Position numbers and translations under genes: made by a program. Below are positions 59,475-61,981 of a stretch of 64,000 bases of DNA, one piece after another. Positions within the stretch are counted from its first letter, which is position 1. Each line of letters begins with the position of its first letter. This DNA is from Promethearchaeota archaeon (lineage in GTDB: Archaea > Asgardarchaeota > Lokiarchaeia > Sigyniarchaeales > SOKP01): positions 1-64,000 of the forward strand of contig JAHPZI010000026.1 in assembly GCA_019058295.1 (NCBI GenBank), read 5' to 3'. The notes under the pieces were generated by a model that did not search any database, was not told where the DNA came from, and saw nothing but the letters and a program-made list of their open reading frames with translations.

Positions 59475-60044
59475 ATGAAGGATTTACTCGAAACCATTTT
59501 AAATAAATTAAATGGTGCTTCAAAAATCATTTTCATTGGAGTTGGAGAAGTGAAATTAAACGATGATGGAGTAGGACCATATATTATAAGTGAACTTTTA
59601 TCATACTCTAATGAAAACTTCCTTTTTATTAATGCTAGTACCGATCCAATGGATAGAATTGATGAAATCGTAGATTTTAATCCTTCACATATAGTAGTTA
59701 TAGACACTTGTACATATAATGGTCCACCTGGAACTGTAGCGATATTAGAACGAGAAAATATGTGTGATTATGTACCTATTTCAACTCATACTATACCGCT
59801 CTCTGTTGTAATTGATTTATTAGTAGAACGATTGCCAAATGCGGAGATTTTCATGATTGGATTAGTTCCAGAAGATTTAAAGGGTTTTACCCAATTAACC
59901 CTCTATAAAGAGAACGAATTATCCCTTGATGATTACTCTGAGAATATCGATTTGCCTTTTTTTAATTTTAATTTATCAGACACTATTAAAGATGTAGCAG
60001 ATAAACTAATAGATATAATAAAAAAAATTACTGAAAAAATATAA
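59475..60044 (+). CDS. Hydrogenase maturation protease (HycI-like)
   Basis: GVG....DDGVG, VVID, PGTV, STHTIP. Confidence 0.88.
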   Translation: MKDLLETILNKLNGASKIIFIGVGEVKLNDDGVGPYIISELLSYSNENFLFINASTDPMDRIDEIVDFNPSHIVVIDTCTYNGPPGTVAILERENMCDYVPISTHTIPLSVVIDLLVERLPNAEIFMIGLVPEDLKGFTQLTLYKENELSLDDYSENIDLPFFNFNLSDTIKDVADKLIDIIKKITEKI

Positions 60045-60059
60045 ATTATTTTTTAGACT

Positions 60060-60314
60060 TTAATAACCGCCTGCCTGCGTAGCCATAACAGTTATTACAT
60101 CTTTTTTAGGATGGATACCTATTTTAGCAAATTTTAATTGATCAGGTAAAACCTTCCCTTTAAAAATAAATTGAATAGCTAAAATCGGATTTAGCTTATA
60201 TTCTCTCTGAACTGATTTTTTAATATCAGCAATATTTTGATTAGGATCTACCTCAATTAATTTAATAGCCTGGTCTGGCGGGACTCCAGTAAGCCTAAAT
60301 CTGTATTGTGTAAT
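60060..60314 (-). CDS. Unannotated 84-aa ubiquitin/SUMO-like protein with C-terminal GG-Y; apparent ATT start
   Basis: (I/M)TQYRFRLTGVPPDQAIKLIEVDPNQNIADIKKSVQREYKLNPILAIQFIFKGKVLPDQLKFAKIGIHPKKDVITVMATQAGGY*; SD-like AGGAAGTG 7 nt upstream. Confidence 0.88.
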   Translation of the reverse strand: MTQYRFRLTGVPPDQAIKLIEVDPNQNIADIKKSVQREYKLNPILAIQFIFKGKVLPDQLKFAKIGIHPKKDVITVMATQAGGY

Positions 60315-60473
60315 TTTTAATCACTTCCTTTTTTAAATTCGGAGATAAAATATATTATTATATATATAAAGTTAATAAAAATAATTAAGTATTTTAGTCT
60401 AAAAGGTTATACTTGAGTTTAAAGCGACTTTTTTTTAGGATTCAATTAGATATTCAAGAAGGTGTTAGATATT

Positions 60474-60662
60474 TTAAAACCGAAATGGTTCAGGTGGAGG
60501 TGGGGGTCCAGGTGGTGCAGGACCTGGAGGAATAGGGGGGCCAGGTCTAAATGGAGGTCGTTTAAGTAAATTTTCTAATGATGAAAGTCTTTTTTCTATC
60601 TCATTTATCCTTTTTTCAATTTTATTAATTCTATCTAATAAATTCGGGTTTTCTAATGACAT
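60474..60662 (-). CDS. Small coiled-coil plus polyproline protein
   Basis: RINKIEKRINEIEKRLSSLE heptads, then PPFRPGPPIPPGPAPPGPPPPPEP; GC-rich patch explained by Pro/Gly codons. Confidence 0.8.
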   Translation of the reverse strand: MSLENPNLLDRINKIEKRINEIEKRLSSLENLLKRPPFRPGPPIPPGPAPPGPPPPPEPFRF

Positions 60663-60862
60663 TTCTATATTAATTTAATTTATTCTTTGTAGTTTTATAA
60701 TTATGATACTTATTATTTTTAAAATTTTTATCTAAATTTATTGAAAAAACATATTTAGTCGGGATCTATACTTTTTTAAATATAAAGGTTTTTCAGAAAA
60801 AAAAGAGTTTTAGTCCAGAAAAAAAGTATAATTTTTTATATTTATATTATTATATTTCTATT

Positions 60863-61981
60863 ATGGAAAGCTGGAATATTTCTAAAAAGCTAAAAGGTGA
60901 GTTATTAACAAAAGCCAGTGGTATTGAAGATAATAGCAGAAGAATATTATTTATTCTAAGAAATCTTGGTCCACAAAGATTTACCAATTTAATAAAATAT
61001 TCTAATTTAAGTAGATCTACAGTCTCAAAATATTTAAGTTTCCATAGAAAAAATAATTATGTTGAACAGAGAATAATTACTGATAAATTATCCAATAAAC
61101 AATATCAAGGGTATGTTATTACGGAAAAGGGCATTGAAAAGCTTGGTGAAGAACCTTTAAGATTGAAGAAAGAATTATTTATGATTAATGAACTTAAAAA
61201 TAATGTTAAAAAGCTTGAAAATTTAATCGCATTCTATAAAGAAATAAGCGTAGAAGAATCATTTATTTTTCATATAGTAAGAATTATTTCCAAAATCGGT
61301 GATAATTTTTTTGAAATTCAACAAGATAGAGATCTTTATCTTGCCCTTTTTTATGTTTTTTACAACTCAATTCTCGGGCAAGGTGCTTTTGCAAAAAAAT
61401 ATTGGCACCTTGATGAATTAAATGATACAAAAAGACCTGAAGAATTCTCAGGTTATAAATTAAATTTACAACAATTTTGTGAACTTTATAATATAGCACC
61501 AGAAGCTATAAACTATTTGGCAAGACTTAAGCTTATGACAAATGAGCTTGGTTTTTATCTAATTAAACGTAAAAATGATGACTTTTTTTTCCATGAAGAA
61601 GATCTATTAGGAACAACAACTTTACGTTTGATAAAAGATCGATTAATTGAGGAAATAATATATATAGATGCGGGAATTCATTCTGAAATTTATGATTTAG
61701 ATAAAATGTCAGAGGAAATATCCGAACACTTAAAAGAAATGGGATTAATATGGAATGCAATTCAAGAACAATTTGAACTATTAATTTTGAACCTTATAAT
61801 AAAAAATGCAATTGACATCGGTTTTTTAGAAACTGATAGGAAAAAATTAATGGAAATAATTTCTCAATCTAAGAAATTGCCTAAATCTATTGAAGGAAAA
61901 ATGCTTCAAGAAAGCATTTTAAATGGCTCAAGGATTGAAGAGAACTTAAATATTCTCACTATTATAGAGAATGAAAATTAA
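60863..61981 (+). CDS. Winged-helix (ArsR/MarR-like) regulator with large C-terminal domain
   Basis: ILFIL...GP.RFT.L.....LSRSTVSKYL...Y.ITEKG. Confidence 0.85.
   Translation: MESWNISKKLKGELLTKASGIEDNSRRILFILRNLGPQRFTNLIKYSNLSRSTVSKYLSFHRKNNYVEQRIITDKLSNKQYQGYVITEKGIEKLGEEPLRLKKELFMINELKNNVKKLENLIAFYKEISVEESFIFHIVRIISKIGDNFFEIQQDRDLYLALFYVFYNSILGQGAFAKKYWHLDELNDTKRPEEFSGYKLNLQQFCELYNIAPEAINYLARLKLMTNELGFYLIKRKNDDFFFHEEDLLGTTTLRLIKDRLIEEIIYIDAGIHSEIYDLDKMSEEISEHLKEMGLIWNAIQEQFELLILNLIIKNAIDIGFLETDRKKLMEIISQSKKLPKSIEGKMLQESILNGSRIEENLNILTIIENEN

Follow-up and report, generated by a model that had tools for sequence, protein, structure and literature searches.

The window, a stretch of 64,000 nucleotides, very probably holds the ubiquitin gene of Lokiarchaeia, encoded on the minus strand as an ATT-started precursor of 84 residues and orthologous to Lokiarch_37670 (Table 1). 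The latter is listed as Lokiarch_37670|Ub in Supplementary Data 1 of Hatano et al. (2022, Nat Commun, PMC9192718) and was used there as Lokiarchaeal ubiquitin; by direct reading of that file, 78 of the 83 residues up to the Gly-Gly are identical in the window protein. Lokiarch_37670 (from Lokiarchaeum sp. GC14_75) is of equal length and likewise ends in ATQAGG plus a pro-tail, but its start codon is ATG instead of ATT and its pro-tail is ISIIH (five residues) instead of a single Tyr. Database homologues are 69 to 96% identical and labelled as ubiquitin-like protein or hypothetical protein of Promethearchaeota, including Lokiarchaeum ossiferum. Judged by these sequence matches, the protein is already known, as the published Lokiarchaeal ubiquitin, and is no new kind of modifier.

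The frame itself, which the initial annotation had described as hidden on the minus strand, was confirmed in its coordinates, its GG-Tyr-stop end, and its absence from the open reading frame (ORF) list, in which no entry (canonical start, at least 30 aa) falls at 60060-60314. From stop to stop it spans 86 codons (60320..60060), with the 84-aa product read from 60314-60063, and it ends in GGC GGT TAT TAA (GG at 60071-60066, Tyr at 60065-60063, stop at 60062-60060). Upstream lie an in-frame TGA (60323-60321), TTA, AAA, and then ATT (60314-60312), and the sole in-frame ATG, GTG, or TTG is ATG 60086, at residue 77 counted from ATT; the sequence thus agrees with the earlier description of a TGA three codons above the ATT and of nothing canonical before M77. 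The Pfam ubiquitin family (PF00240) matched residues 19 to 82 (E 4e-9, 36.5 bits versus a cut-off of 25.4), and a six-frame family search of the genome returned the same locus. By six-frame search, orthologues with 73 to 99% identity were present in 35 of 41 relatives in the order, and the gene was found in 135 of the 161 genomes of the class. Substitutions were overwhelmingly silent: the nearest relative differed by 16 synonymous and 0 nonsynonymous changes, the next two by 26 to 27 synonymous and 2 nonsynonymous changes, and pN/pS against the window gene was 0.00 to 0.02 among members of the genus and did not exceed 0.24 in the order as a whole. The 84-codon frame is a functional gene under selection, far beyond chance. 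Partial tblastn matches in five genomes (G015, G019, G040, G130, and G136) were rejected as split genes and reflect contig ends or missing bases; in another genome (G033), the match was limited to the last 25 residues, inside a 126-codon frame.

Table 1. Positions of the ubiquitin gene, its parts and neighbours, and related loci (window numbering unless a contig or locus is named)
Feature	Position	Strand	Remark
Ubiquitin precursor gene	60060..60314	-	84 codons, ATT to Tyr, plus TAA stop
ATT initiation codon	60312..60314	-	From aligned start regions of 67 species
Shine-Dalgarno-like motif GGAAGTGAT	60320..60328	-	5 nt before ATT; contains in-frame TGA 60323-60321
Gly82-Gly83, predicted conjugation end	60066..60071	-	ATQAGG motif in relatives
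Tyr84, one-residue pro-tail, predicted removable	60063..60065	-	Variable tail in relatives
62-aa coiled-coil and polyproline gene	60474..60662	-	Directly upstream of ubiquitin gene
372-aa winged-helix gene	60863-61981	+	Divergent; at ubiquitin locus in 14 of 29 relatives' loci
HycI-like protease gene	59475-60044		Convergent with ubiquitin gene
ThiF/MoeB-type E1-like gene, short, 252-codon frame (L031)	contig 26: 66883-67581	-	6.6 kb from ubiquitin gene
Caldiarchaeum-like operon (L034)	contig 28: ~182.2-186.0 kb		Second, different ubiquitin-like system
Third Ubl type (L041, L042)	contig 12: 9883-10257; contig 22: 3492-3878		
Insert-bearing ubiquitin locus, G018	L017:1501-1830		
Insert-bearing ubiquitin locus, G024	L050:280-600		
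Insert-bearing ubiquitin locus, G027	L029:1480-1790		
Insert-bearing ubiquitin locus, G066	L052		
Insert-bearing ubiquitin locus, G098	L053		
Insert-bearing ubiquitin locus, G116	L054		

Among 67 species with aligned start regions, the start codon of the ubiquitin gene was ATG in 36, ATT in 23, ACG in 4, ATA in 2, and GTG and TTG in 1 each, every non-ATG codon being a single-base neighbour of ATG. ATT, ATA, or ACG therefore stood at this position in 29 of the 67 sampled species, in line with the earlier suggestion of a systematically unannotated gene; that suggestion failed for relatives with ATG, in which the gene is called and named. A GGTGA/GTGAT-type motif preceded ATG, ATT, ATA, and ACG starts by 5 to 9 nt in nearly all relatives (pairing was judged against the general archaeal anti-Shine-Dalgarno [SD] sequence, the organism's own 16S not being assembled in this 79%-complete genome). 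Indels of 1 nt in the spacer put the GTG of the motif in frame in some genomes and a TGA in frame in others, which marks the spacer as noncoding. At several loci (L003, L004, L082, and L089), translation has no alternative start, because a stop codon stands two codons ahead of the ATT. ACG occupied the position in four genomes of a sister genus (L063, L068, L069, and L070), in two of which a TGA lies three codons upstream, so that ACG appears to act as a start; to our knowledge, initiation at ACG is not established for prokaryotes.

Assembly error could be excluded as the origin of the ATT, because independent assemblies agree and contigs from RNA libraries keep it. The latter, from relatives 85 to 99% alike and from 3 to 4 studies, cover 60067-60334; they are short and carry no 5' end, strand, or expression level, their uncovered flanks are uninformative, and they give a weak hint of expression. 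Read from the aligned starts, the upstream SD-like motif, and the upstream stops, the ATT start of the ubiquitin gene is real, which upholds the view of ATT as the necessary start. Translation of the mRNA has to begin with the AUU at 60314, which follows the SD-like GGAAGUGAU after 5 nt. That the gene is instead a silent or untranslated relic in this genus, or is read with a frameshift from the out-of-frame GTG at 60324, is extremely improbable. Such readings could draw on the absence of a canonical in-frame start and on the overlap of that GTG with the SD-like motif, but a relic would not be expected to show the excess of synonymous over nonsynonymous changes to all three nearest relatives (16 to 0 and 26 to 27 to 2) or an ATT kept in 23 species, and ten essential or conserved genes of the same genome show a like pattern. 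As for the frameshift, the GTG frame reaches TAG after nine codons, and the spacer indels mark the region as noncoding.

Those ten genes were picked from a genome-wide screen for coding-like ORFs whose first canonical start lay at least 15 codons inside the coding sequence, with SD-preceded codons recorded at most 5 codons from the upstream stop. The commonest SD-preceded codons after the upstream stop were ATT (22 ORFs) and ATA (15 ORFs). The ten conserved genes (loci L072 to L081, on contigs 6, 8, 10, 21, 22, and 25) encode uS10, uS12, TFB, a flavodoxin, a Ras-like GTPase, HisA, a metallo-beta-lactamase (MBL hydrolase), a methyltransferase, V-ATPase AC39, and an ABC ATPase, and each has an SD-like motif followed by ATT, ATA, ATC, CTG, or ACG. 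Pfam domains began 16 to 97 residues before the first ATG, GTG, or TTG in nine of the ten; the ABC ATPase was borderline, its domain starting at that residue. As a crude estimate, SD-led ATT, ATA, or ATC starts make up very roughly 1 in 7 (40 to 68 cases versus 248 SD-led first ATGs). Since the ten conserved genes share the pattern, the lack of a canonical start belongs to the lineage and not to ubiquitin, and the use of AUU, AUA, and other near-cognate starts is a lineage-wide habit. It is because of this habit that gene finders limited to ATG, GTG, and TTG miss the ubiquitin gene. The initial annotation was accordingly right that callers omit or truncate the gene for want of a canonical start, a want that is not special to this gene. 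AUU starts are known from infC and pcnB of Escherichia coli, and ATT, ATA, and ATC are listed as starts in NCBI table 11. As in the window gene, the near-cognate start of infC and pcnB stands behind an SD motif; unlike there, it is no rare gene-specific device here, and the codon of the ubiquitin gene toggles between ATG, ATT, ATA, ACG, GTG, and TTG among close relatives. A literature search returned no paper describing such near-cognate start usage for Asgard archaea.

The ubiquitin-fold hallmarks noted at the outset were borne out by the Pfam ubiquitin match and by structure prediction. AlphaFold2, run with 59 homologues, gave a beta-grasp fold (mean pLDDT 91.6, pTM 0.81) with the element order E-E-H-E-E-(short H)-E and strand 1 starting from residue 2. 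With Foldseek, the model matched ubiquitin, NEDD8, SUMO, and Caldiarchaeum ubiquitin with a probability of 1.00 (TMq/TMt of 0.76/0.83 for 1ubq and 0.74/0.70 for Caldiarchaeum ubiquitin 6fnn_C; 0.75 to 0.76 for NEDD8). A family profile search of PDB sequences had the MDY2/Get5 UBL (34 bits), RAD23, ISG15, and ubiquitin among its best 60 matches. In the HMM alignment to ubiquitin, I50 corresponds to I44, G53 to G47, K54 to K48, and K32 to K27, residues that are invariant or nearly so in the family; L8, I50, G53, and M77 (at the V70 position) are invariant, and a hydrophobic patch of the L8/I44/V70 type is thus kept. With eukaryotic ubiquitin the protein shares the beta-grasp, L-T-G at positions 8 to 10, the equivalents of I44, G47, K48, and K27, the GG end, and synthesis as a precursor. 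Identity is about 20 to 23%, however, and the window protein differs by a loop that is longer by five residues (V-P-P-D-Q) between the first two strands, by a Pro in place of K63, and by a tail reading A-T-Q-A-G-G instead of L-R-L-R-G-G, without Arg72 and Arg74 and so without the Arg residues that eukaryotic Uba1 reads. Unlike its eukaryotic counterparts, the gene is neither a polyubiquitin nor a fusion to a ribosomal protein. Close relatives of this ubiquitin domain, with an R-L-T-G-V-P-P motif, also occur fused into Lokiarchaeial proteins of 370 to 880 aa that have no further Pfam domain (P0130, P0133, P0135, P0138, P0140, P0145, P0162, and P0191), mostly without a GG end, and no second Pfam domain was found in ten larger proteins with this Ubl domain.

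The initial annotation had inferred a SUMO-like modifier. A distinct SUMO-type modifier, serving a second pathway with its own E1/E2 and Ulp-like protease apart from archaeal ubiquitin, is a highly improbable reading of these data, even though the tail gives it some footing: T-Q-A-G-G is uncharged, lacks the arginines of ubiquitin, and resembles the Q-T-G-G of SUMO, with which the protein shares a Q-x-G-G end and a short pro-peptide after it. SUMO2 (7p99_C) also had the best Foldseek E-value, and the SUMO model Rad60-SLD (PF11976) gave a weak match (E 0.0013). That match, however, reached 19.0 bits against a cut-off of 23.8, whereas ubiquitin passed its own, and alone did so among ubiquitin, SUMO, Urm1, UFM1, and ThiS/MoaD. 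TM-scores were higher for ubiquitin and NEDD8 (0.74 to 0.76) than for SUMO (0.62 to 0.70), and no SUMO was among the best 60 PDB sequence matches of the family profile. The flexible N-terminal arm of SUMO is missing, strand 1 of the predicted fold beginning at residue 2; a search for the C48/Ulp protease family (PF02902) found no match in the genome, which is 79% complete; and published work takes the orthologue for the ubiquitin of the lineage and reports its binding to UEV (PMC9192718). The evidence favours ubiquitin over SUMO, with the uncharged tail as the sole SUMO-like trait.

We consider it very unlikely, too, that the protein is a dual-function beta-grasp protein of the SAMP/Urm1 kind, activated without an E2 by the short MoeB/UbaA-like E1 whose gene lies at a distance of 6.6 kb, and acting in sulfur transfer, E2-independent protein modification, or both. 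The 252-codon ThiF-family frame on the same contig would fit such a system, as would a ThiF gene that another contig carries about 10 kb away from the orthologue and the lack of linkage between the ubiquitin gene and any E2. Against it, the Pfam families ThiS, MoaD, and Urm1 gave no match even at E values up to 1, so that the grouping with sulfur carriers raised earlier as a possible objection did not materialize; the neighbourhood is not conserved, Lokiarchaeum ossiferum having no E1 within 10 kb; and the ubiquitin-type L8/I44 patch and the K48 equivalent are conserved. Ubiquitin remains the reading that we adopt below.

The genome encodes 4 ThiF-type E1-like, 3 UQ_con E2-like, and 6 JAB/MPN (JAMM) proteins, with two of the JAB genes inside E1/E2 clusters. 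Three E1/E2 sets can be distinguished, two of which carry their own, different Ubl genes, and the ubiquitin gene is adjacent to none of them. It had been stated that the window contains no E1 or E2; this is correct for the window, but its contig carries a ThiF-family gene 2.9 kb past the end of the window. In this gene, an R-Y-S-R-Q motif and a nucleotide-binding loop lie upstream of the first ATG, and the only possible starts are ATT codons behind a GAGGCGA motif. The operon on contig 28 encodes an 85-aa Ubl ending in VVGG-F, an E2-like protein, a 293-aa E1, a 163-aa JAMM, a Roadblock/GTPase-like protein, and a zinc-ribbon protein. In the third Ubl type, the N-terminus is extended by a long acidic stretch and the C-terminus reads S-T-A-G or S-T-A-G-I, with a single Gly; on contig 12, the Ubl ending in STAG-I is clustered with a 411-aa E1, an E2, and a JAMM. 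The remaining E1/E2 pair is on contig 4. Elsewhere on contig 28 (148.9-152.1 kb), three JAB/MPN genes of 446, 484, and 319 codons are clustered in 3.2 kb, at 148.9, 150.3, and 151.7 kb; the other three are found at 184.7 kb of contig 28, 7.3 kb of contig 12, and 273 kb of contig 21.

The proposed GG-X pro-tail held up in the comparison of relatives. In the 59 database homologues, G82 was invariant and G83 nearly so (at least 90%). Of the 63 loci of relatives in which the ATQAGG end was found, 18 had no residue after the GG, 40 had one, 3 had two, 1 had three, and 1 had thirteen; single-residue tails were F, I, V, Y, C, S, N, K, or A, mostly the first four. A tail varying from 0 to 13 residues after a conserved GG points to a precursor with a removable pro-peptide. 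In Caldiarchaeum subterraneum, a nine-residue tail on pro-ubiquitin blocks activation by E1 until it is cut by an Rpn11-like JAMM (Hennell James et al. 2017, PMC5654768). That protein (PDB 6FNN) and the window protein are both archaeal GG-plus-tail precursors of the ubiquitin family, but the Caldiarchaeum gene lies in an operon with E1, E2, RING, and JAMM genes, whereas the window gene stands alone. By analogy with Caldiarchaeum and eukaryotes, the C-terminal Tyr is probably clipped by one of the six JAMM/MPN proteins; the exposed Gly83 would then be adenylated by an E1-like enzyme encoded elsewhere, and an E2-like enzyme would take over the activated ubiquitin, which would finally reach substrate lysines. 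It may also be read by UEV/Vps23 of the ESCRT machinery, as reported in print for the orthologue rather than here: Lokiarch_37670 interacts with Lokiarchaeota UEV-domain proteins (Vps23) in the yeast two-hybrid system (PMC9192718). The Pfam UEV model gave no match in the present genome and was likewise silent in control genomes.

The surroundings of the ubiquitin gene are not conserved beyond the family and are completely different in Lokiarchaeum ossiferum. The HycI-like protease gene is kept at the locus only in the closest relatives, and with linkage so limited, this protease was rejected as a candidate for the tail protease. On the other side, the gene for the 62-aa coiled-coil and polyproline protein, for which no Pfam family scored above cut-off, adjoins that for ubiquitin at 10 of the 29 loci of relatives (tblastn) and forms a conserved local block with the 372-aa winged-helix gene. 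A scan of 59950-60750 for bacterial promoters and terminators, with a bacterial model inapplicable to archaea, gave fewer promoter-like sites than shuffled sequences and no terminators.

Six relatives carry inserts of 30 to 31 nt in the orthologous ubiquitin gene. Four insertion sites occur, one each behind codon 4, K61, and K70 and one, used in three genomes, between I74 and T75. The inserts of G018, G027, G066, and G098 contain an in-frame stop, and the 31-nt insert of G024 shifts the frame. Each folds into a helix, a 3-nt bulge, a 4-bp helix, a second 3-nt bulge, and a helix, with the last bases of exon 1 pairing with the end of the insert; in G027 the central helix is mismatched. When each bulge is cut behind its second base, the conserved frame is restored exactly (four cases by script, two by hand). 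These inserts are probably tRNA-type introns of the bulge-helix-bulge class, borne by the mRNA. In the literature searched, tRNA-type introns inside archaeal coding sequences were documented only for cbf5. The ubiquitin gene of the window has no insert. A database protein of 76 aa (P0049), ending in KKDVIKC, looks cut off at such an insert.

For Lokiarchaeia, these results mean that callers accepting only ATG, GTG, or TTG drop or distort a central ubiquitin gene in the 29 of 67 sampled species with other starts; database entries include over-extended proteins of 106 and 112 aa and truncated ones of 75 to 76 aa. Because near-cognate starts escape gene callers, tables of the presence and absence of eukaryotic signature proteins that rest on their output will under-count ubiquitin. 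Standard proteomics of K-GG remnants would also fail, as the last tryptic site is K71, leaving a remnant of 12 residues (D-V-I-T-V-M-A-T-Q-A-G-G). It is conceivable, but in our estimation unlikely, that the ubiquitin supply of Lokiarchaeia is set at the RNA level, the repeated swaps of ATG for ATT, ATA, or ACG and the repeated bulge-helix-bulge introns being a regulatory coupling and not tolerated noise; if so, ubiquitin output would depend on how stringently start codons are selected (aIF1-type proofreading) and on the endonuclease and ligase of tRNA splicing. As a clean test case with very strong conservation, the ubiquitin gene is suited to the study of near-cognate initiation in archaea, and its counterparts in relatives are suited to that of mRNA splicing by tRNA endonuclease.
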